A stretch of 28,842 nt of DNA from Candidatus Buchananbacteria bacterium. Its GTDB lineage: Bacteria > Patescibacteriota > Patescibacteriia > 2-01-FULL-39-33. This document shows, piece after piece, positions 1,476 through 21,557 of the stretch (position 1 is its first letter; every line of letters starts with the position of its first letter). The DNA lies in assembly GCA_903907165.1 (NCBI GenBank), contig CAIVNC010000016.1, positions 1-28,842 of the forward strand. Direction: 5' to 3'. The notes under the pieces were generated by a model. It was not told the DNA's origin. It did not search any database and saw only the letters and a program-made list of their open reading frames with translations. A program made the position numbers and the translations under genes.

Positions 1476-1810
1476 CTAGCCGACAATAATAATACCGCTT
1501 CGCTTGTTGACATTGTATCGTCCGTGATATTCCGGCCAAGTTCCATCCAGGTTTATGAAACCTTTAATCACGATAATACTTCTGTCCTGCGCAGTTTTTT
1601 TGATTGTTCCCTTGACTACGAAGCTGCGCTTAGCCATTGGGGGAAGGGTTTTCAGAGTGAACTCAACCCTTTTTCCCTTCAGGCTCGCCATCGCCATATC
1701 AAGAAAGTCTGGACCGACCAAGATCCGGTACATGATCGGTATGCCTTTGAGAACCATGTTCCTTAATCTCGGAACTTTGTCCTTTTTGAGGACTTTGCTC
1801 TTCTTTGACA
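1476..1810 (-). CDS. Hypothetical small protein (111 aa), monocistronic
   Basis: AGGAGG lies 7 nt before the ATG at 1808-1810 (MSKKSKVLKKDKVPRL...). It has its own terminator. The ORF-track 153-aa version extends upstream of this RBS. No family recognised. Confidence 0.55.
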
Positions 1811-1899
1811 TGATAGAATATCCTCCTTGTCGCCAATTTTCATGATCTAGCATCCGCAAAGGATCTGAATTTACCCTACAATAAATAGGCAAATGTGTC

Positions 1900-1927
1900 A
1901 ATAAAAAAATCCCGACTTTCATCAGGA
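1900..1927 (-). terminator. Terminator after the VirD4-like ATPase gene
   Basis: Minus strand: UCCUGA-ugaaag-UCGGGA (one G-U pair) followed by UUUUUUUAUU. The T-run overlaps a TTGACA -35-like hexamer for the next gene. Confidence 0.4.
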
Positions 1928-1940
1928 CATTTTTCATAGT

Positions 1941-4466
1941 TTAAAATCTAGGTACTTCCGCCATCGCCGGCTTACCCAGCTGTCCAATCTTGGAACGCTC
2001 CAAGATCTCTCGCACCACCACTTGATTATCTCTACCATATTTGAGCCTAGACAATTCCTTGAGAGGCTGAGTGATTTCTTTATTGGCCTTGGCAATCACC
2101 GAAGGATGATAAGCTTTCATATTAAATGTATCCGTTGCCGTATTGTCGATAAGCAGACGAACATAAGCATTGTACTTTTCTACATTCATCAAATCATACT
2201 CACCCACTGCCGGCGCCAACTGCTTGGCCATTACCTCGCTATCATCCACACCAATCCGATAACAAACAATACTGCCAACGTTGCCAAAAACCGCATCCTT
2301 AACTTTGGTATCCGTGCCATTAACCAGCTGAGCAATATACTGATGAGCCATGACTAGGTTCAATTTGTATTTTCTAGCCTCAGCTAAAATAATGGAAATG
2401 CTATCGGTAATGAAATTCTGGAATTCATCAATATATAAATAGAAATCACGTCGTTGATCTTCTGGCATATCGGCACGAGCCAAAGCCGCCATCTGAAGCT
2501 TGGAAACGGCAATGAGACCAAGCAAGCTACAATTTGCATCGCCAATCTTACCCTTGGACAAATTCATCAACAAAATCTTGCCGCTGTCCATTACCTCGCG
2601 GAAATTAACACCAGATCTGCCCTGACCGATAATATTGCGCATCAATTCGTTTTCAACGAAACGGCCAGTCTTAGAAATAACATAAGACAACATGTCCGCG
2701 CCATTACTGCCCTTTTGCGAGGCTGTGTATTCACGTTCCCAAAAATCTTTAACTAAAATATCTTTAACATGAGTCAATTTTTCTTTACGGAAAGCATCGT
2801 CGGTAAAAATACGAGCCAGTTCAACAAGCGTGCAAGGATTTTCCGGATCAGCCATGAGAGCCAAAAGCGCATTTCTCATGTAATGTTCAAACATAGGACC
2901 AGCCATGGAAGGATCGGGCAACAGTTTATAGAAAATATTAATCATCTCCTGCGCTGCCTGATCCATTTCATAAAGACCATTGGCATCGAGCATATTAAGT
3001 CCGATCGGACGGCCAAAATCTGACGGATCAAAAATAATCACATCGTCAGCGCGTTCCTTTGGAATATAAGGCAAAATATCTTCTATGAGATTACCATGAG
3101 GATCAATAACACAAACACCTTTACCGGCAATAATATCCTGAATGGCCATAGTCGACATGGTCGTGGATTTACCAGTACCAGTCATACCGATGATATACAT
3201 ATGACGGCGACGATCAGCTTCTTTGATGCGAACCTGAACCGTATTGCCACGATAAGTATTTTCTCCGAGAACAACTCCCTCGGCCGGCAAGTTAAGTGGT
3301 GGCGCCAAACGTCTAGCCATAAGCCAGCGGATATTTGGCACTTCAGTATTTGGAAATGGCAAATGCCACAAGGAAGCCATCTCTTCGGAATTTAAAACGC
3401 AATTATTATTTTCATCAAACAAGCGATAAATAAAATTATTGATCGTCTTGTTTTCATTATTCTTAATTACCGCTTTGAAACCATTGGCATACTGATAATT
3501 GGAATACTGAGAAAAAGCATTAGCTACATATTTTACCGTATCTTTGGCTTGATGTTCCGTCTCAGCAAAAGCCACCAAGCGAATATTAACATCCATGCCA
3601 GCCTTAGAAGCCTTTTCTTCAATTGATTTAACCATTTGTTCTTCAAGCGGCGACAAACGATAATCCTTACTTTTATCTTCAACTGGTTTACTACTACCGG
3701 GCATCCAAGAATTAAGACTACCAAGAGGACTTCCCTGACTAGCCATAGCCTTTTTATAACTATTACCCTGTTGCATCTTGGAAGCGATTTTTACGCCGTT
3801 TTTGCGCCACTCCTTGCGAGCCGAGCGCATCAGAAACTGAATCGAGACTGTAACGCCTTCTGGCAACTTCGACAAAGCACTAAGCACATTAATCATTGGA
3901 TCACTCTCCATGCTTTTGTAGGTCAAAATCGGAAACATCTTGTCTTTAAGCAATTTAATATAACCGCCGGACACGTAACCACGATCGCGGAAAATGTTAT
4001 AGTCCTCAATTTCTTCAATCTGACAATGAGGATACTGGGATAAAATCTGTTGTTTGATATAGTCCTCAAGATACACCGGAATTGCCATGTAAAAAGTGAT
4101 CAAATGATCAGCTCCAACCACAACCTCAAACGACCAAGTATCATAACGTCCAAAAAGCCAAGTCTTAAAACCACGATGAGCGCGCAAACCACCAAGACTA
4201 GAATAAAAATTTTCGATGCCAGAAATAATTTCTTTAATATTTTTCTTGCCATCCTCTTCTTTGATTGCCACTCGCTGAGGCACAGTCAACATAAAAATTT
4301 TCTTCTGAAAAATCCCTGGGTAAACTTTATGATTAGCAAAAACCTTGCGCAAGATCAATAAGACAACAAAAACAAAGACGGCCAGACCAAGCAAGATGCC
4401 GGCTAGCAAAAGATAAGTAACAATATCTGGAGTTAAAATTGTATTGGAATCGATAGTGAAACCCAT
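1941..4466 (-). CDS. Membrane-anchored P-loop ATPase of the VirD4/TraG/TraD (T4SS coupling protein) / FtsK-HerA superfamily, 841 aa, with an N-terminal extension of unknown function
   Basis: N-terminal hydrophobic segment (LLLAGILLGLAVFVFVVLLIL). Walker A reads RHMYIIGMTGTGKSTTM, followed by CVIDPHGNL. Walker B-like reads FYLYIDEFQNF. These resemble TrwB/VirD4 motifs. About 330 aa between the TM segment and the ATPase core have no recognisable match. Confidence 0.7.
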   Translation of the reverse strand: MGFTIDSNTILTPDIVTYLLLAGILLGLAVFVFVVLLILRKVFANHKVYPGIFQKKIFMLTVPQRVAIKEEDGKKNIKEIISGIENFYSSLGGLRAHRGFKTWLFGRYDTWSFEVVVGADHLITFYMAIPVYLEDYIKQQILSQYPHCQIEEIEDYNIFRDRGYVSGGYIKLLKDKMFPILTYKSMESDPMINVLSALSKLPEGVTVSIQFLMRSARKEWRKNGVKIASKMQQGNSYKKAMASQGSPLGSLNSWMPGSSKPVEDKSKDYRLSPLEEQMVKSIEEKASKAGMDVNIRLVAFAETEHQAKDTVKYVANAFSQYSNYQYANGFKAVIKNNENKTINNFIYRLFDENNNCVLNSEEMASLWHLPFPNTEVPNIRWLMARRLAPPLNLPAEGVVLGENTYRGNTVQVRIKEADRRRHMYIIGMTGTGKSTTMSTMAIQDIIAGKGVCVIDPHGNLIEDILPYIPKERADDVIIFDPSDFGRPIGLNMLDANGLYEMDQAAQEMINIFYKLLPDPSMAGPMFEHYMRNALLALMADPENPCTLVELARIFTDDAFRKEKLTHVKDILVKDFWEREYTASQKGSNGADMLSYVISKTGRFVENELMRNIIGQGRSGVNFREVMDSGKILLMNLSKGKIGDANCSLLGLIAVSKLQMAALARADMPEDQRRDFYLYIDEFQNFITDSISIILAEARKYKLNLVMAHQYIAQLVNGTDTKVKDAVFGNVGSIVCYRIGVDDSEVMAKQLAPAVGEYDLMNVEKYNAYVRLLIDNTATDTFNMKAYHPSVIAKANKEITQPLKELSRLKYGRDNQVVVREILERSKIGQLGKPAMAEVPRF

Positions 4467-4973
4467 TTATTTAACAATTCTTTGCCTGTCTTGAATTAAA
4501 CCCAAAACTTTATCTGTTTTAATCTTGGCAATTTGCTCTAGAAAAAACTTATTAATACCAACAATAAACTTTAACCAACCAACAATGAGCTCCAAAATCT
4601 TTCTGGCACTAACCCTCGGCTTGGCCAACTGCTCCAAAATCTTATTAGTCGTTTCCTCACCTTTTACCTTAAACTTGGCTTGATCGACAGCATTCATTTT
4701 GAAATAGTAATCGCCAAGATCTGCCTCTAGGATATCTTCAATCTTTCGATAATCATTATCCACCGGCAGGGCCGGAGCCAATGCCTTAGCTCGCGCGGAA
4801 TCAGCCGAAAAATAAACATCAGAGAGTGCTTCCTGAGCACTTTCTTTGTTTTCTACTTCTGGAGATTCGTGAGATTTTTCACCTCCCAATGATCTTTCGA
4901 TTTCCGACTGGGGTCGATATGATTCTGGAGAGCCAAAATCATTTTTCTTTTCAACTAATTTTTGATTTACCAT
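4467..4973 (-). CDS. Hypothetical protein (168 aa), translationally coupled to the downstream ATPase
   Basis: Its stop TAA directly abuts the ATG of the ATPase (taaATG). RBS GGAAGG lies before its own ATG. The N-terminal half is acidic and disorder-like; the C-terminal part is amphipathic. Confidence 0.55.
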   Translation of the reverse strand: MVNQKLVEKKNDFGSPESYRPQSEIERSLGGEKSHESPEVENKESAQEALSDVYFSADSARAKALAPALPVDNDYRKIEDILEADLGDYYFKMNAVDQAKFKVKGEETTNKILEQLAKPRVSARKILELIVGWLKFIVGINKFFLEQIAKIKTDKVLGLIQDRQRIVK

Positions 4974-5002
4974 CCTTCCACAATAAAGTTATTAACAACT
5001 AT

Positions 5003-5033
5003 ATTATACCACAAAACTATTTTGTGGTATAAT
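5003..5033. promoter_or_regulatory. Palindromic divergent promoter/operator: TATACCACAAAA-cta-TTTTGTGGTATA, with an extended -10 (TGgTATAAT) on each strand
   Basis: Perfect 12/12 inverted repeat at 5005-5016 and 5020-5031. The plus-strand TATAAT at 5028-5033 faces corA. The minus-strand TATAAT at 5003-5008 faces the 168-aa/ATPase operon. No -35 hexamers. Confidence 0.45.
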
Positions 5034-5053
5034 GTATTTATATCCACATACCT

Positions 5054-5998
5054 ATGGCCAACGAAAACATCAAAACCGTTCCCTCACCAAGCAACAAGTT
5101 TGCTTGGATTAATATTATTGATGCCGGCAAAAAAGAAATTGACTACTTGCGACGCAAATTCAAATTTAATACCTTGGATTTGGAAGATTGTTATGCTGAA
5201 CAATATGCCCAACGGCCAAAGTTCATCGTCAGGCAAAATTATTGCTTCTTAATTTTACAATTTCCAGTTTATAACCGCAAAGAAAAGTGTATTTATGCTG
5301 AAGAAATCGACTTTTTTATCACCAAGGATAATTTAATAACTGTTCACGGCAATCATTTACCACCGATTGTCGAGGTTTTTAATTCCTGCGAAAATGATGA
5401 CTTTCATCGTGGCCAATACATGGACGACGACATCGGCTATTTACTTTATGAAATCATTTCTCGCCTTCAGGAATACTGCTATCCCATTCTTGATCACGTC
5501 AGCCTGGATATCAAAAACATTGAAACAAATATTTTCAAGGATCGTGAAAAACAGATGATTGAAAATATCATGTTTATTAAAAAAAATATTTCTGACATCC
5601 GCAAAATTGTCGAAGCGCACAAAAACTCTTTACAAAAAATCCTTCATACCACTTCCCCATTTCTCAATCTCAAGCAAAATAAAAATTATTACAACCATCT
5701 AGTCGAAAACACTAAGGACATTTGGGATCTTCTTGGCGGACACAACGACCTCATCTCCTCTCTTGAGGATACCAACTCCACCCTCGTCTCGCTCAAGCTT
5801 AACAACATCATGAAAACCCTAACGGTTTTCTCGGTTATTATTCTACCACTAACTCTCCTTTCTGGCGTTTTTGGCATGAATACAGTTGACGGCATGCCAC
5901 TCGTCAACAATCCCAATGGCTTTTTTGTTATAGTTGGCTCAATGCTCACTATTGGCATGCTCATGTTTATTTACTTCAAAAGTCGTCGTTGGATTTAG
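5054..5998 (+). CDS. corA: CorA-family Mg2+/Co2+ transporter
   Basis: C-terminal two TM helices with the signature VFGMNTVDGMP (GMN motif). Length 314 aa. Confidence 0.85.
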   Translation: MANENIKTVPSPSNKFAWINIIDAGKKEIDYLRRKFKFNTLDLEDCYAEQYAQRPKFIVRQNYCFLILQFPVYNRKEKCIYAEEIDFFITKDNLITVHGNHLPPIVEVFNSCENDDFHRGQYMDDDIGYLLYEIISRLQEYCYPILDHVSLDIKNIETNIFKDREKQMIENIMFIKKNISDIRKIVEAHKNSLQKILHTTSPFLNLKQNKNYYNHLVENTKDIWDLLGGHNDLISSLEDTNSTLVSLKLNNIMKTLTVFSVIILPLTLLSGVFGMNTVDGMPLVNNPNGFFVIVGSMLTIGMLMFIYFKSRRWI

Positions 5999-6081: not shown

Positions 6082-6630
6082 ATGTTTAAAATCATTCTCG
6101 AAGCGTTTTATCTGATTTTGCCGGCTTATTTTGCCAACATGGCACCGGTCATCTTTGCCAAACTTAAATGGCTGGAGTTTCTCAACAAGCCGATTGACGG
6201 AGGCAAAAAACTGAACAACGAGTTCATCCTGGGAACCAATAAAACCTGGCGCGGTTTAGTGTCAGGAATTATTTTTGCCATGATTATCGCCGGCATCCAG
6301 GCCTGGCTGTATGGATTTCAGAGTTTTTACAACATCTCATTGTTCAACTACCAAGAGTCGTATTTGCTTTTCGGTTTCTTGGCTGGCTTTGGCGCCATCT
6401 TCGGCGATGGCCTCAAAAGCTTTTTCAAGCGCCGCATTGGTATCGCTTCTGGAAAATCCTGGCCAGTACTTGATCAGATTGATTTCGTCTTTGGATTCTG
6501 GGCCTTCACCTATTTTATCGTTGAGCCATCTGGCTGGGTGACATTTGCCTTCTTCCTAATCACCCTTGTTCTTCACCCAACGATTAACGTGATCGCCTAT
6601 CTTCTGGGCATTAAAAAAGTTTGGTACTAA
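6082..6630 (+). CDS. CdsA/CarS-family CTP:phosphatidate-type cytidylyltransferase (short, CDP-archaeol-synthase-like DUF46 form)
   Basis: KTWRGLVSG and GDGLKSFFKRRIGI...LDQID motifs in a 182-aa polytopic membrane protein. It lacks the PGHGG segment of canonical CdsA. RBS AAAAGGAAA. Confidence 0.6.
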   Translation: MFKIILEAFYLILPAYFANMAPVIFAKLKWLEFLNKPIDGGKKLNNEFILGTNKTWRGLVSGIIFAMIIAGIQAWLYGFQSFYNISLFNYQESYLLFGFLAGFGAIFGDGLKSFFKRRIGIASGKSWPVLDQIDFVFGFWAFTYFIVEPSGWVTFAFFLITLVLHPTINVIAYLLGIKKVWY

Positions 6631-9807: not shown

Positions 9808-11673
9808 TCAGTCGACTTTGGCTTCAACCGGCGCAGCCTTCTTGGCGACCGACTGAGGAGCGACACCTTTGGCCGAATCCTGATTCTTTACGATCATTTG
9901 GGCCAGCAGGATGTCAGCAATATTGTTGCTGCCACTGCCAGAACCACTGATCATGATATCGGGCACCAGTTTGATCTTGTTGCTAGCCAAAGCGTTGGCG
10001 ATTTGCACCGCGGCGTAGTTACCAGACTCCATCGAATTAATCTTAAGCTGGGTCACTTCGGCCTCGGCACTACCGATCGCCTTGATCTTGCCAGCTTCGG
10101 CGTTACCAACAGTCGTCGTGACCATTGCGTCGGCTTCGGCGTTGACCTTCTTGGACTCGGCCTGACCCTTGGCATTTTCGATAGCCGCCTGAGCCTCAAA
10201 GTTGGCAATCGTCACTTTGCGCTCGGAAGCCACAACGTTGGCCTGGGTGGCAGCCATGGCCTTGGACTGCTCCAATTCCTTGCGAGTGTCTTCAGCCATC
10301 TGCTGAGTCTGGAAAGTCACCTTTTGCTGTTCGGCGATTTTCCGATCCGTGAGCGTTTTCATCAGATCTTCCGGCGGGACGATATCGCCAATCAGCGTAT
10401 CGATGGCTCCGACATTATACTCTTCCAGAGCCCGGCCGATTTGCTTCTTGGCGTCTTCCTGGCGAGCTTGACGCTCAGCCAGAAACTCGATCACATCTGA
10501 GCCCTGAGCGGCGTTTCGGAAGTAGTTACCGATTGTCGGCTCCAGCACCTGAGTAACCAGGTTACTCACTGATCCGAACATCGCGATAACCCTTGGCGCG
10601 TAGTTGCGACAGATGTTGATGATCTGGGCAACGTCCAAGTTGAACGTGAAGCCGTCGGAGGAGCGCACCTTGATCGTACAAAGATTCTTATCAAGGTTGT
10701 GCGCTTCGCTTTTGCCAGTCGCCCAGTTCAGGACGATATTGGCGGTCGGAACGTTTTCCACGCGATGGGTTCTGGTGTTAATAGGGTACATGCCAGGATC
10801 GAGAGGATCAACCCAGACACCTCTTTCTCCGTGACTGACCAGATTACCATGCTTGAATCCGTCGCCAGTGACATCCTTGCCAGCTTCGCCGACATAGGAA
10901 ATAACGACACCAACGTGAGCAATGGGCACAGTCGTCATTTCCACCATTTCGACTGAAACTAGCCATGGATTGAAAAAGTAACAACCAGCCAGAATCACCT
11001 GTTCCTGAAGACCTTTAAAACCCCCATTGTCGAGGAAAGCCTGGCCGTTCTGAAACATACTGTGATTGGGAATTTCCGGTCCGGCAATTTCACCAGACGG
11101 AAGCGGCTTACCTTCTTTGGTCGTCACAATCCCAACCTTGCCATCCTCGATCTCAACGACGTCGGTCGTATTAATCGTAAACAACGAGGTGTTTATCCTG
11201 TACGTTCCAGGAGGAATGATCGCAATTTGGGGACCGCGCTCACCGCCATTACTGAGAAATTCGCGCGCATTTTGGAAAAGATCACATTCGACGTGCTTGG
11301 CCAAAATCCGGCCGGCCGAGATAGGCCTGCCATCACGTGACTCAACCACACCAATCCAACCTTTCTTGATTGTGATGAAATCCTCAATCACGATCTCATA
11401 CTGCCAGGGCCAATAACCCCAATGCAGTCCTGGCGCCAACGTATCGGCCTGGATACCGGCTTCACCCTTCAGGGCAATAATCTGCCCATCGGAAAGATTC
11501 CGGTTTGCTCCGAACAGCACGAACTTTTTGTTGACGATACCGATGGAGCTCTGGGGGATAATCACTATCCCGAACAAACGGAAAGTCCAGCGGTAACAGG
11601 CGACGAATAGAAAACAACCGATGATGGCAAAAAGCCACCAGTGACTCAGGGTCCAACCGATCAGCGTCTCCAT
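9808..11673 (-). CDS. Flotillin-like SPFH/band-7 family membrane protein (621 aa)
   Basis: N-terminal TM segment, internally duplicated FLSNGGERGPQ / FLDNGGFKGLQ segments, and a C-terminal Ala/Glu/Gln-rich coiled-coil flotillin tail (VGNAEAGKIKAIGSAEAEV). GC is clearly higher than in neighbouring genes. Confidence 0.75.
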   Translation of the reverse strand: METLIGWTLSHWWLFAIIGCFLFVACYRWTFRLFGIVIIPQSSIGIVNKKFVLFGANRNLSDGQIIALKGEAGIQADTLAPGLHWGYWPWQYEIVIEDFITIKKGWIGVVESRDGRPISAGRILAKHVECDLFQNAREFLSNGGERGPQIAIIPPGTYRINTSLFTINTTDVVEIEDGKVGIVTTKEGKPLPSGEIAGPEIPNHSMFQNGQAFLDNGGFKGLQEQVILAGCYFFNPWLVSVEMVEMTTVPIAHVGVVISYVGEAGKDVTGDGFKHGNLVSHGERGVWVDPLDPGMYPINTRTHRVENVPTANIVLNWATGKSEAHNLDKNLCTIKVRSSDGFTFNLDVAQIINICRNYAPRVIAMFGSVSNLVTQVLEPTIGNYFRNAAQGSDVIEFLAERQARQEDAKKQIGRALEEYNVGAIDTLIGDIVPPEDLMKTLTDRKIAEQQKVTFQTQQMAEDTRKELEQSKAMAATQANVVASERKVTIANFEAQAAIENAKGQAESKKVNAEADAMVTTTVGNAEAGKIKAIGSAEAEVTQLKINSMESGNYAAVQIANALASNKIKLVPDIMISGSGSGSNNIADILLAQMIVKNQDSAKGVAPQSVAKKAAPVEAKVD

Positions 11674-19175: not shown

Positions 19176-21557
19176 ATGGAAAAATTTTACCCAAGATTAA
19201 ACAAATTAATTCTGGAAACGGGAGCCGATGAGGCCATTGGCGGTGCCATGATTGCCAAATCAGACGCTAAATCCGAAGAAAAGCTAGGTCTTATTTTTAG
19301 CATAATTGATATAAGAGGCGTTGACGATTTTTTCTGCGAGAATTTCATAGAGATTATCAATGACCTAAAAACCGAATATTATCTTCCCCCGATTGAAGCT
19401 GAATATGGGGTCGAAAAAAGGTTTGAAGAATGTCTCCAGCGCGCTAATCGTCGCATCCACAAGTTAATTGCCCAATCTATTAACGTTATCGACCTTCGTG
19501 GCATCAACGCTCTGATCGGCTTAGTTTACCGTAACAGAATTTATCTCAGTCATTCCGGCAAAATGGGAGCTTACCTATTTCACAAAAAAGTTAAAGGCGA
19601 CTTTGCCACCGTCGATATTATCGGACCAAATGCCGGACGCATCAAGCCAGACCAAGAAAAAATCTTTGGCAATATTGTCAGTGGTGAAATCACCACCAAA
19701 GATAATCTATTTTTCTGCAATTCAGTTTTATTGCAATATTTCTCAGCTAGCAATCTTTGCCGCATCGTCGGTGAAAACCAGCTTTTTGAAGCTATGGATC
19801 TTATTCGCAATAGATTAGAAGATCGCGAAGCTAGGGATAAATTTTATGCTGTCGTTTCTCAACTTCAGGTTTTTGAGGATATTCCTTCGGCCTCTGAAAT
19901 TATTTCCTCAAACAAAGCCTCTGAGCTTCATGCCAAACCAGAAAAATCCATTAACAATCTTATTAATACTCAGCAAAAGACTGAGAAATATCTCACTCCC
20001 TCTACCCTACCTAACTGGCAGAAGTTTTTGTTACTACTCGCTCGCGGCCTCAAAACATTAATCACTTGGATCATAAAATACGGTTGGATTGGTGCTCAAA
20101 AAGCAGCTGAAGGTATTATTTTCGGCTCAAAATTTATAGCACAAAAGATTTCCGCATATTTTGAAAAAAGAAAGAAACGCCAAACCCTACTTGCCGGCGT
20201 AACCGAAACCAAAGTTTCACTTGACGAAGATAAAGATGGCGAACAAATTTTAACTATCAAGAAAGAAACAGTAGCGATTATTTCCGAGGAGCCATTACCT
20301 AAAACTGAAAACGTCCAAGAAACCAAACAACAAGCCGAGCCAAAGAAGGATCGAAAAGAAATCGCGGAACAATATACCAGAACCACAACCTCAGAAATTA
20401 ATCGCCATGGCATTAAACCTCAAGTCAGCCATTGGCTCAATAAACAAATCGGCGGATTTATCAGCCTAAATATTTGGCAAAAGATTTTGGTAGTTAGTGC
20501 TTTTGTTCTTTTCTTCTTCTTTTCTCAAAGCATTGTCCTTAACAGTCAAAAAACTAGCCGCGATGTCAACATTAACGACGTCCAAACTATCGTCAAGCAA
20601 GCCAATGAATATTTGAACAAGGCCGAAGCTCAAAACATTTTTAACGATGAAACCGGTGCTAAATCCTCTATCGCCTCCGCCACCACCGAGATGGCGAAGA
20701 TCCCGGCTAAAAAACAATATGAGAGCGACATCCAAGCTATTCAAAAAAGAATCGATGATTTAAATCATTCTTTAGAAAAGGTTACCTATCTGGATAACCC
20801 AGCAGTCATTGCTGATCTTGGAAATACTAGCGCTCAAGCTCAAGCCGTTGGCCTAGCCAAAATTGGCACTCAGCTTTTCTCTTTTGATAATCAAAATCAT
20901 CAACTCGACATTATTGACCAAGCCAAAAAACAAACCATTACCGTGCCAGTTGACCCATCCATCGGCCAAGTCAGAAAGGTTGTCACCATGAGCGACAAAT
21001 CAATTGCTTTACTTAACGATAAAAATGAAATTTATCAATATGCTCTTGGAGCCAGTACCACCAAATCTTTAGCGGTAGGCGCTAACGTCAAAGATATTGA
21101 AAGCTATGGTGGCAAACTTTATATTCTGCAAGACAATAAAGTTACCAAAAATATCGCCACTAAAGACGGCTTCAACTCTGGCAGCAGTTGGATCAAGGGC
21201 AATCCAGATTTAACCAAATCCATCTCTATTGCGGTCGGCGATGGAGTTTACCTTGGTCAAACCAACGGCCAAATCAGCTTCTATAATTCTGGCTCATTGG
21301 CCAATTTCAAGGTCTCCACAATCAATCCAGTGCTTTCCTCCCCTGCTCAAATTTATACCAATCTGGATTCACTCTATGTCTACGTCCTAGATCCTCAAAA
21401 CCAAAGAGTGGTAATCTTTGACAAACAAGGCAATCTAAAAACCCAATACACATCAAAGTTATTCACTGGCCTCAAATCCATGGCTCTATCCGAGCGCGAC
21501 AAAAAAATCTACGTCTTGTCGGATAATAAAGTTTACGCGATTGATATTACATTCTAA
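19176..21557 (+). CDS. Large membrane protein (793 aa): cytoplasmic N-terminal PP2C/SpoIIE-like region, one TM segment, extracytoplasmic repeat/beta-propeller-like C-terminal domain
   Basis: N-terminal patterns IYLSHSGKMGAYLF and DNLFFCNSVLLQYF are reminiscent of PP2C motifs; catalytic Asp residues were not verified. TM segment ILVVSAFVLFFFF around residue 430. C-terminal repeated KLYILQDNKV / KIYVLSDNKVYAI strands. Confidence 0.6.
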   Translation: MEKFYPRLNKLILETGADEAIGGAMIAKSDAKSEEKLGLIFSIIDIRGVDDFFCENFIEIINDLKTEYYLPPIEAEYGVEKRFEECLQRANRRIHKLIAQSINVIDLRGINALIGLVYRNRIYLSHSGKMGAYLFHKKVKGDFATVDIIGPNAGRIKPDQEKIFGNIVSGEITTKDNLFFCNSVLLQYFSASNLCRIVGENQLFEAMDLIRNRLEDREARDKFYAVVSQLQVFEDIPSASEIISSNKASELHAKPEKSINNLINTQQKTEKYLTPSTLPNWQKFLLLLARGLKTLITWIIKYGWIGAQKAAEGIIFGSKFIAQKISAYFEKRKKRQTLLAGVTETKVSLDEDKDGEQILTIKKETVAIISEEPLPKTENVQETKQQAEPKKDRKEIAEQYTRTTTSEINRHGIKPQVSHWLNKQIGGFISLNIWQKILVVSAFVLFFFFSQSIVLNSQKTSRDVNINDVQTIVKQANEYLNKAEAQNIFNDETGAKSSIASATTEMAKIPAKKQYESDIQAIQKRIDDLNHSLEKVTYLDNPAVIADLGNTSAQAQAVGLAKIGTQLFSFDNQNHQLDIIDQAKKQTITVPVDPSIGQVRKVVTMSDKSIALLNDKNEIYQYALGASTTKSLAVGANVKDIESYGGKLYILQDNKVTKNIATKDGFNSGSSWIKGNPDLTKSISIAVGDGVYLGQTNGQISFYNSGSLANFKVSTINPVLSSPAQIYTNLDSLYVYVLDPQNQRVVIFDKQGNLKTQYTSKLFTGLKSMALSERDKKIYVLSDNKVYAIDITF

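Follow-up and report, generated by a model that had tools for sequence, protein, structure and literature searches.

A conserved Patescibacteria gene pair encoding a coupling-protein-family ATPase with a predicted VirB4-like N-terminal domain and a small partner protein

Coupling-type ATPases and the Buchananbacteria gene pair

The Patescibacteria (CPR) represent a large share of bacterial diversity and are host-dependent, and the machines by which they secrete and take up material rank as prime candidates for obtaining what the cells cannot make. Canonical type IV coupling proteins (T4CP) usually contain two transmembrane (TM) helices. TrwB, from R388, also has two, and its motor follows the anchor without a large intervening domain.

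A survey of 3,035 Patescibacteria genomes reports 5,713 VirD4-like homologues in 2,918 of them (96%) and a VirB4-based type IV secretion system (T4SS) in 2,417 (about 80%; Quinonero-Coronel et al. 2025, Microb Genom, PMC12102498). The counts come from incomplete MAGs and take all VirD4-like paralogues together, at about two per genome. These homologues are mostly placed far away from virB4 (148 of the 5,713 are near it), their exaptation is not excluded by the authors, and the VirB4 proteins of the phylum form a separate, well-defined clade (PMC12102498). Southlakia epibionticum cannot do without its T4SS genes, whereas its t4cp homologue is dispensable (PMC12102498); the T4SS of this organism is described as lacking a recognisable coupling protein (Wang et al.). 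Orphan T4CP homologues in Patescibacteria were thus already published in 2025. The module described here, which a first-pass annotation of the DNA presented as an orphan module, is not new as a class and overturns no current view.

The window is the whole stretch of DNA analysed, the 28,842-nt contig CAIVNC010000016.1 of a Candidatus Buchananbacteria bacterium (GCA_903907165.1). It carries a two-gene unit on the minus strand, formed by the gene of an 841-aa membrane-anchored T4CP-family ATPase (1941..4466) and, directly upstream, the gene of a 168-aa partner protein (4467..4973). Both ORFs are real. The ATPase resembles the VirD4-like homologues of the survey in its phylum, its VirD4-type HMM match, its chromosomal setting and its usual distance from virB4. 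The survey does not describe the TM-DUF8128-ATPase architecture, the upstream partner or the cysS-corA-dnaX synteny presented below (PMC12102498), and the likeness to its homologues is one of kind.

Architecture and family of the ATPase

The ATPase is anchored by a single N-terminal TM helix (about aa 17-39; 4350..4418, minus strand), recognised from hydrophobicity, charge flanks and the structural model. The Kyte-Doolittle profile (19-residue window) peaks at 3.2 over this segment, the one strongly hydrophobic stretch of the protein, which is conserved among the homologues and corresponds to helix 13-44 of the AlphaFold model (pLDDT 83.4). The single TM segment proposed at first therefore stands. 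The helix has an acidic N flank and a basic C flank, as in nearly all of 40 aligned homologues, and this suggests an N-out/C-in orientation.

The anchor is followed by a cytoplasmic domain (about aa 50-395; 3282..4319, minus strand). The first-pass annotation described here some 330 residues with no recognisable similarity, regarded them as a novel domain and stated beforehand that its reading would fail if this extension proved to be annotated already. It is: a newer Pfam release assigns PF26449 (DUF8128) to a database protein 100% identical to the window ATPase and to nearly all listed homologues, the assignment being taken from this precomputed annotation. The local Pfam copy and NCBIfam give no match in the N-terminal 400 aa, and a literature search for "DUF8128" returns no papers. 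The predicted fold of DUF8128 matches the N-terminal domain of TrwK/VirB4 by two independent methods, at an identity of 7-10% to VirB4/TrwK (PDB 7o42, 7o43, 8rtd). In the models, DUF8128 thus folds like the N-terminal domain of VirB4; it is also common to the coupling-position proteins of Gram-positive conjugation loci.

The C-terminal half is a RecA-like NTPase domain (about aa 396-830; 1977..3281, minus strand). It carries the Walker A motif GMTGTGKST (aa 427-435; 3162..3188, minus strand), the Walker B motif YIDEFQNF (aa 678-685; 2412..2438, minus strand) and a helical insertion (aa 498-627; 2586..2975, minus strand), which is located where the all-alpha domain of T4CPs sits. Both Walker motifs are present as first read, and their key residues G427, G430, G432, K433, D680 and E681 are invariant in the 40 homologues, for which the mean column identity across CPR lineages is 56%. 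This conservation supports an active enzyme under selection.

Homologues of the 841-aa protein are widespread in the Patescibacteria, with at least 1,895 protein matches from at least 598 species at identities of 51-82%, and are usually named by NCBI 'type IV secretion system DNA-binding domain-containing protein'. Three Pfam T4CP families pass their gathering thresholds on the ATPase: TrwB_AAD_bind (43.2 bits, cut-off 20.5), T4SS-DNA_transf (31.9 bits, cut-off 20.1) and TraG-D_C (30.9 bits, cut-off 22). DUF87 also scores above its cut-off (36.8 bits), covering the generic NTPase domain alone. The top NCBIfam matches are the VirD4-like CD1115 and TraD families, and the best matches of the family profile among PDB sequences are TrwB (8e-6) and DotL (7.5e-4). 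The earlier assignment to the VirD4/TraG/TrwB coupling-protein type agrees with these matches. VirB4 does not appear among the PDB matches of the profile at E<=1. In Pfam, AAA_10 reaches 12.4 bits on the ATPase, under its 27.5-bit cut-off, CagE_TrbE_VirB gives no match, and the protein does not show the FtsK_SpoIIIE motor signature. By its family matches, the ATPase half is coupling-protein-like and not VirB4-like.

The closest architecture outside the CPR is found in monoderm conjugation loci. An hhalign comparison of the family profile with WP_345805471.1, an 885-aa protein of the B. subtilis plasmid NZ_CP154917.1, spans columns 97-796 at a probability of 100 (E 1.9e-42). The VirB4-type ATPase of the same plasmid matches at the P-loop alone (probability 2.7). 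The gene of WP_345805471.1 lies directly upstream of those for a Replic_Relax protein, TcpC, TcpE and this AAA_10 VirB4-type ATPase. In the Embleya plasmid NZ_CP108778.1 the order is PrgI, an ATP-binding protein, the homologue WP_331738717.1, Replic_Relax and NlpC/P60. These coupling-position proteins are similar in length (812-885 aa) and homologous to the window ATPase over both the N-terminal and the ATPase domains, at 22-26% identity, and the best explanation of the comparison is that the window ATPase belongs to the subtype placed at the coupling-protein position of monoderm conjugation loci. On the other hand, the Bacillus and Embleya homologues are inside T4SS loci, with Replic_Relax proteins, VirB4-type ATPases, TcpC/TcpE or PrgI and a cell-wall hydrolase, whereas the window gene has none of these nearby and is instead accompanied by a dedicated small partner.

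The window ATPase differs from both ATPases of R388. Compared with TrwB/VirD4 (PDB 1e9r), it has one TM helix, followed by a VirB4-like domain of about 345 aa. Compared with VirB4/TrwK, it lacks the VirB4 sequence signature and the VirB3, VirB6 and VirB8 neighbours, no such gene adjoining the ATPase among the window ORFs checked or in 85 related loci. Three results sharpen the picture of this pair: the predicted VirB4-like fold of DUF8128, the same architecture at the coupling position of Bacillus and actinomycete conjugation loci, and the small partner that is co-encoded nearly always.

The partner protein and putative expression signals

The partner protein consists of two dissimilar parts. 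The first-pass annotation called it acidic, which holds for the variable and probably disordered N-terminal 75 aa (pI 4.6; 4749..4973, minus strand) and not for the protein overall, with a pI of 6.6 and balanced charges (28 D+E vs 28 K+R). The conserved C-terminal domain (aa 76-160; 4494..4748, minus strand) is basic and helical, the conserved part having a pI of 9.7. It contains the motif W..(I/V)PG(V/I)NKFFLEQEAKIKTDK, and G105, W133, N141, F144, K150-K152 and D154 are invariant in the alignment. A word-indexed search finds 56 partner homologues, and an exhaustive profile search 1,805 clusters at 50% identity, all of them stand-alone proteins of 147-226 aa. The partner has no relative in the local Pfam copy, NCBIfam, PADLOC, PHROGs or PDB sequences, and no significant match in the searched stretches of the B. 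subtilis plasmid and Bacillus phage 0105phi7-2.

The pairing with the ATPase is kept across many genomes. The partner gene is directly upstream and on the same strand in 61 of the 85 related loci, and the spacing is tight: in 45 of 62 related pairs the partner stop is located between -10 and +11 nt from the ATPase start, ATGA, TAATG and TGATG overlaps included. The neighbourhood conservation that the first-pass annotation proposed to check is therefore found. In the window the junction reads aaaTAAATGggt, so that the partner stop directly abuts the ATPase start (TAAATG, zero spacer; 4464..4469, minus strand), as originally noted. The abutting spacing suggests translational coupling, with the partner made in step with the ATPase.

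The spacer of 80 nt between the partner gene and the divergent corA (5054..5998, plus strand) contains a palindrome at 4997..5039. Its arms (4997-5016 and 5020-5039) are of 20 nt each, 90% complementary and separated by a 3-nt loop. Each strand of the palindrome presents an extended -10 element (TGGTATAAT; TGnTATAAT), with TATAAT at 5008..5003 on the minus strand and at 5028..5033 on the plus strand. A comparable palindrome with TGCTATAAT on both strands occurs in the relative L001 and is absent from the GC-rich relative L004. The palindrome is read as a putative bidirectional promoter and, possibly, also as a candidate operator. An own palindromic promoter had been claimed for the pair; the palindrome itself, with its arms and paired -10 elements, is confirmed, and its promoter role is one that we infer from the letters of the DNA.

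The terminator claimed for the unit is borne out by a terminator scan backed by an RNA fold. A terminator-like hairpin with a U-run is located at 1899..1928 (minus strand); the hairpin itself (1909-1928) begins 12 nt past the ATPase stop and folds with a dG of -13.5 kcal/mol (z -3.7), none of 200 shuffles folding equally well. A 153-aa ORF after the ATPase (1476..1937) overlaps this hairpin and is rejected as a third gene of the module. Its shorter 111-aa form has a strong Shine-Dalgarno sequence but matches no family and has no counterpart in 88 loci, and was also rejected. Separately, a family of about 212 aa is encoded downstream in 60 related loci and is absent from the window.

Genomic context and possible roles

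The gene pair is embedded in conserved housekeeping synteny with cysS, corA and dnaX, and not in a transfer locus. The long ORFs that were checked in the 28.8-kb window, the one contig of this genome covered here, include no T4SS-type gene: ten of them were Pfam-scanned, and Dus, CysS and MurF were named by sequence and related-locus synteny. In the 85 related loci there is likewise no T4SS gene within 10 kb. The first-pass annotation saw no VirB-type partners nearby, and this extends to the window ORFs checked and to all 85 loci. The locus is best explained as a chromosomal operon of two genes, passed on vertically in a Patescibacteria bacterium that its nearest relatives mark as Buchananbacteria/ABY1-like. 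Outside the housekeeping genes, the pair ranks with the better-conserved ones in one large part of the phylum.

From the family membership, the homology to coupling-position proteins, the predicted folds and the conserved pairing, we infer tentatively, and at somewhat less than even confidence, a motor that recruits substrates, has a regulator or adaptor at its side and feeds a T4SS encoded elsewhere. That T4CP genes are often distant from virB4, and that about 80% of the genomes have a VirB4 T4SS (PMC12102498), accords with this. The ATPase would form a membrane-anchored ring, like its relatives, and its VirB4-like N-terminal domain would dock it onto an inner-membrane platform. Then, driven by ATP, the motor would recruit a macromolecular substrate (DNA or protein) and pass it to the Patescibacteria T4SS, whose genes are located elsewhere in the genome. 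A conjugative DNA substrate is unlikely, as the Patescibacteria have almost no relaxases (PMC12102498); this counts against the reading, as does the T4SS of S. epibionticum without a recognisable coupling protein (Wang et al.). The small protein would regulate the motor, or serve it as an adaptor, in stoichiometric amounts, for which CagZ with Cag-beta offers a precedent. The structure of Cag-beta under regulation by CagZ (PDB 8dol) appears among the structural neighbours; no sequence similarity was found between CagZ and the 168-aa protein, and the likeness of the two pairs is functional, by analogy alone.

The main alternative, essentially the proposal of the first-pass annotation, is a T4SS-independent translocase, which we regard as possible although rather unlikely. 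In that case the ring and its small partner would suffice as a pump, set in the single membrane of monoderm cells and moving DNA or another polymer in, out, or between attached cells without a VirB apparatus. Single-protein DNA pumps of the same superfamily, FtsK/SpoIIIE and Streptomyces TraB, operate in monoderms and provide a precedent. Several observations favour such a pump and at the same time weigh against a motor that feeds a T4SS. These are the housekeeping synteny and the lack of a T4SS neighbour in the 85 loci, the occurrence of VirD4-like genes in more genomes than VirB4, and the dispensable t4cp homologue of S. epibionticum, where the T4SS is essential. The scarcity of VirD4-like genes near virB4, the exaptation left open by the survey's authors and the unit's own conserved partner, putative promoter and terminator also argue for the pump. 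However, the literature counts pool VirD4-like paralogues from incomplete MAGs, and with one TM helix per subunit no membrane channel is obvious. The closest non-CPR homologues are inside complete T4SS loci, and in the R388 structures known so far a VirB4-like N-terminal domain serves for docking.

A wider form of this alternative is doubtful. It would make the pair a minimal translocation machine of two components, independent of a T4SS and core to ABY1-type and related Patescibacteria, with an architecture that is a living intermediate between VirB4 and VirD4. If it is true, a coupling-type motor with a retained VirB4-like docking domain and a dedicated small subunit would move DNA or protein across a single membrane, e.g. 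during the episymbiotic exchange on which these cells depend, and this would suggest that the common ancestor of VirB4 and VirD4 already had the N-terminal domain.

It is improbable that the ATPase is a divergent VirB4-like assembly ATPase, in which a fused, tethering helix would stand in for VirB3 and the protein would energise membrane or pilus assembly rather than choose substrates. VirB3-VirB4 fusions are known, and the overall length and two-domain order resemble those of VirB4. Against this, the protein has T4CP sequence signatures, a sub-threshold AAA_10 score with no CagE_TrbE_VirB match and no VirB4 counterpart in the PDB search; the hhalign probabilities point to the coupling-position protein and not to the plasmid VirB4-type ATPase, and Patescibacteria have a VirB4 clade of their own.

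A mobile-element remnant, or a defence ATPase of the HerA or MADS mad8 type, is very improbable: PADLOC does match mad8 (7e-17) and, more weakly, HerA models, and full-length relatives occur in phages (phrog_5156, 1e-80; Bacillus phage G gp156) and in 241 plasmid records, but the cysS, corA and dnaX synteny is the same across many CPR lineages, at 51-82% identity and with invariant Walker motifs, no integrase, relaxase, nuclease, Sir2 or methyltransferase gene adjoins the ATPase gene among the window ORFs checked or in the related loci, and the GC content of 0.41 is typical of the contig. The defence reading is rejected on this context, its mad8 and HerA matches being limited to the NTPase core. 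The phage reading is also rejected: the relative in phage 0105phi7-2 sits among plasmid-like replication and partition genes, so the phage matches do not make the window locus viral.

The ATPase: anchor, N-terminal domain and motor

The larger gene of the pair (1941..4466, minus strand) encodes an 841-aa protein for which the first-pass annotation had proposed Walker A and B motifs, a single transmembrane (TM) segment and a VirD4/TraG/TrwB-type ATPase. All three proposals are borne out. Walker A (GMTGTGKST, aa 427-435) and YIDEFQNF (aa 678-685) are present, with G427, G430, G432, K433, D680 and E681 invariant across 40 aligned homologues. One strongly hydrophobic segment (about aa 17-39), flanked by acidic residues on its N-terminal side and basic residues on its C-terminal side, is kept with this pattern in nearly all 40 homologues, and the charges of the flanks suggest an N-out/C-in orientation. 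In the Pfam search, three coupling-protein families matching at aa 400-770, TrwB_AAD_bind (43.2 bits), T4SS-DNA_transf (31.9) and TraG-D_C (30.9), as well as DUF87 (36.8), exceed their gathering scores; FtsK_SpoIIIE, HerA_C and AAA_10 score under their thresholds on the 841-aa protein. In NCBIfam the best-scoring entries are VirD4-like CD1115 and TraD families, none of which comes near its equivalog cut-off. Against PDB sequences, the family profile retrieves TrwB (8e-6) and DotL (7.5e-4), and no VirB4 at E<=1 among solved structures. A motor of the type IV coupling protein (T4CP) family with conserved catalytic residues and a single membrane anchor are both strongly supported.

The N-terminal 330 or so residues had been described as a novel domain without recognisable similarity, and neither description holds. 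PF26449 (DUF8128), found in a Pfam release newer than the local copy, is annotated as the first domain along the product on the identical database protein and on nearly all listed homologues; the N-terminal domain is therefore already annotated, though uncharacterised, and a literature search found DUF8128 mentioned in no paper. A model of aa 45-400, built with 39 homologues (pLDDT 85.7, pTM 0.85), was submitted to two independent fold searches, which agree; the top Foldseek matches are twelve TrwK/VirB4 chains (E 2.5e-6 to 1.8e-4, query-normalised TM 0.42-0.46). The ATPase therefore has a VirB4-like two-domain layout, although its motor is coupling-protein-like by sequence. The presence of a domain resembling the VirB4 N-terminal domain between anchor and motor is well supported.

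A search of the protein database gave at least 1,895 homologues; identity is 51-82%, over nearly the whole length, in the top 120. Among the matches listed with a source name, most are called 'type IV secretion system DNA-binding domain-containing protein'. The sources are Buchanan-, Uhr-, Kerfeld-, Kuenen- and other Patescibacteria, to which a survey with one genome for each species (the gene occurs in at least 598 species) adds Falkow-, Magasanik-, Komeili-, Doudna- and Portnoybacteria and Kazan. Many related loci, such as L007, L008, L021 and L023, are titled 'uncultured Gammaproteobacteria bacterium' (TPA_asm) yet have typical Patescibacteria gene content, and these taxonomic labels look unreliable. 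The first-pass description is mostly right, but its claim to novelty is not: the ATPase is another member of a known, widespread, uncharacterised family of "orphan" T4CPs in Patescibacteria, and its existence will not surprise a specialist. What the analysis adds, at modest value, is a fold for DUF8128, a tie between the ATPase and coupling-position proteins in Gram-positive conjugation loci, and a partner family recognised as conserved.

The small partner and the layout of the pair

The small gene (4467..4973, minus strand) encodes 168 aa. Both ORFs, and the abutting stop and start codons at their junction (aaaTAAATGggt), are present in the sequence as first reported. The product had been called a small acidic protein; its overall pI is 6.6, acidity is limited to the first 75 aa (pI 4.6), and the conserved C-terminal region has a basic pI of 9.7. 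Conservation is confined to the C-terminal ~90 aa (consensus IE.ILEEDL...Y..M.P..Q..FK.KGEETA.KI......K.K.KKIL.LI..WLK.IPGVNKFFLEQEAKIKTDKIL; invariant G105, W133, N141, F144, K150-K152 and D154), the N-terminal part being variable and E/P/K-rich, and no hydrophobic segment of TM strength occurs. A word-indexed search returned 56 homologues, and an exhaustive profile search 1,805 clusters at 50% identity, every one stand-alone and of 147-226 aa. No relative was found in Pfam, NCBIfam, PADLOC, PHROGs or PDB sequences, nor any description in the literature.

For the neighbourhood comparison, genes were called in 85 related loci by a simple ORF caller. In 61 of them the ATPase gene is immediately preceded, on its own strand, by a member of the small-partner family. 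In 45 of 62 pairs the distance from the partner's stop to the ATPase start is -10..+11 nt; ATGA, TAATG and TGATG overlaps occur in several. A dedicated small protein co-encoded with the ATPase is thereby strongly supported. Because upstream pairing and tight spacing recur, co-transcription is, as read from gene arrangement, a conserved feature, and translational coupling probably is as well; the two proteins may interact physically. In divergent lineages (L068-L085, e.g. L074:6859-7434 and L084:972-1400) the position ahead of the ATPase is taken by an acidic ORF (119-196 aa, same strand) without a match to the small-partner profile. These lineages comprise Doudnabacteria, Kazan and MAGs labelled Saccharibacteria; the ORFs of L074 and L084 have another C-terminal motif in common, ..PY(L/I)LD..HD.L..EL...LV.QKK(I/L)K...

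The pair had also been credited with its own palindromic promoter and terminator. An inverted repeat (arms 4997-5016 and 5020-5039, 90% complementary) occupies most of the 80-nt spacer between the small gene and the divergent corA (5054..5998, plus strand), and an extended -10 (TGGTATAAT) is read on both strands within it. A comparable palindrome, with TGCTATAAT on each strand, is found in locus L001; none of this kind occurs in the GC-rich L004. The palindrome itself stands, as does a hairpin followed by a U-run 12 nt past the ATPase stop (1909-1928, dG -13.5 kcal/mol, z -3.7), and the promoter role is putative. A second terminator-like hairpin (1418-1443, dG -13.4, z -4.5) lies shortly before dnaX (DNA polymerase III gamma/tau; minus strand, 1-1330, starting at 1330, incomplete at the window's left end and hence absent from the ORF list), whose product reads MSTLYRKYRPQSF...GPRGLGKTT.... 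A promoter-like site by dnaX (1404-1376) reads TTGACG, 17 nt, TAAAAT with TG. Between the two terminators, a basic 111-aa ORF (1479-1811, minus strand) has a strong Shine-Dalgarno sequence (aaggagga) and a GC3 of 0.56, against 0.40 in the ATPase gene, with nothing homologous in 88 related loci and no match to any family. Extended to 153 aa, from 1937, the ORF would run across the terminator hairpin, and that version is probably spurious.

Relatives outside Patescibacteria

Near-full-length relatives (query aa ~85-800, 22-26% identity) were found by tblastn on 241 plasmid records, including those of Streptomyces, Clostridium, Bacillus, haloarchaea and Sulfolobus, and in a few phages; phrog_5156 matches aa 80-825 (1e-80). 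On a 27.5-kb B. subtilis plasmid, an 885-aa relative lies directly upstream of Replic_Relax, followed by TcpC, TcpE and an AAA_10 VirB4-type ATPase, and so occupies the place of the coupling protein in a Tcp/ICEBs1-type conjugation locus. An Embleya plasmid has the order PrgI, ATP-binding protein, ATPase relative, Replic_Relax, NlpC/P60. The family profile matches the 885-aa protein over both domains (columns 97-796, probability 100, E 1.9e-42) and the VirB4-type ATPase of the same plasmid at the P-loop only (probability 2.7); the N-terminal domain on its own gives E 4e-9 with the Bacillus protein and 4e-8 with the Embleya protein. From these profile and locus comparisons, we conclude that the window's ATPase is a member of a monoderm-conjugation T4CP subtype carrying a VirB4-like N-terminal domain, and not a VirB4.

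In the phage-plasmid-like genome of Bacillus phage 0105phi7-2 (L087:6021-6741), two small ORFs of 117 residues, without significant match to the small-partner profile, precede the ATPase relative. The second stops 1 nt short of the ATPase start, an arrangement that echoes the small-gene-then-ATPase layout.

Chromosomal setting and possible roles

Those of the window's long ORFs that were checked are housekeeping genes (CorA, CarS-like, Dus, CysS, a 621-aa Band_7 protein, MurF, PBP, MraW, YceG, BacA and FtsX, with Dus, CysS and MurF named by sequence and by synteny with related loci), and an L10 leader is also present. The CarS-like protein of this bacterial housekeeping region (6082-6630, plus strand) belongs to the CDP-archaeol synthase family (PF01864, E 1.3e-36). 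The GC content rises to 0.53 at 10001-11000, against ~0.40 elsewhere, inside the Band_7/SPFH gene (9808..11673, minus strand), and a 793-aa ORF (19176-21557, plus strand) has no Pfam match. Synteny is shared among the 85 loci: beside the small partner (61 loci), the neighbours counted over all 85 are a ~212-aa family (60) and dnaX (54), both downstream, cysS (48), divergent corA (28) and dus (18). No T4SS-related family is among the 25 most frequent neighbour families, and plasmid-encoded VirB4, TcpC, TcpE, PrgI and Replic_Relax proteins, used as phmmer queries, matched the ATPase alone. The claim that VirB-type partners are missing nearby agrees with these results, for the long ORFs checked and the frequent neighbours. 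The GC content of the pair is in line with the contig; the pair is chromosomal and vertically inherited, not a mobile element, and vertical inheritance in housekeeping synteny is strongly supported.

In Patescibacteria, VirB4 occurs in 2,417 of 3,035 genomes and forms a separate clade inside the monoderm MPF-FATA class; 5,713 VirD4-like T4CP homologues occur in 2,918 genomes, only 148 of them near virB4, and relaxases are almost absent (Quinonero-Coronel et al. 2025, PMC12102498). The T4SS of Southlakia epibionticum was described without recognisable coupling or relaxase proteins (Wang et al. 2023, PMC10633639), and a 2025 FEMS review gives the same picture (PMC12857230).

The ATPase would assemble as a ring at the membrane, dock via its VirB4-like N-terminal domain and use ATP to recruit or translocate a macromolecule. 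The small protein could be a regulator or adaptor, likened, by analogy with small T4CP partners, to CagZ with Cag-beta (PDB 8dol, Cag-beta/CagZ, is among the structural neighbours). The reading ranked first, held tentatively, is that the pair works with a T4SS encoded elsewhere, because the ATPase's nearest relatives outside Patescibacteria are genuine coupling-position proteins and, in solved T4SS structures, its N-terminal fold serves as a docking module. Translocation independent of a T4SS, ranked second and rather unlikely, draws on a distribution wider than that of VirB4, the housekeeping context and the dispensability of the t4cp homologue in S. epibionticum, where the T4SS is essential (Quinonero-Coronel et al. 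2025). The VirB4-like layout would fit a VirB4-like role in assembly, but the sequence is T4CP-like, and this third-ranked role is improbable. Context and conservation contradict a mobile-element or defence remnant, which ranks last as very improbable.

The ~212-aa family, missing from the window, separates the T4CP-like gene from dnaX (e.g. L015:13252-13941, plus strand; same strand in 59 of 60 loci). It has a coiled-coil/acidic N-terminus, a beta-rich C-terminus (consensus ..VPANYASKSKLVEGD..IYKQIGPVERKR..ASVTYFKGE...) and no Pfam match, and could be part of the module or go with dnaX. In three loci, very large ORFs begin 9-52 nt past the ATPase stop (L002:12545-16846, L003:12545-16846 and L020:12528-16778). 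Their products, of 1,433 aa in L002/L003, with a weak Beta_helix match, and of 1,416 aa in L020, could be substrates or ATPase-linked cell-surface proteins in these lineages.
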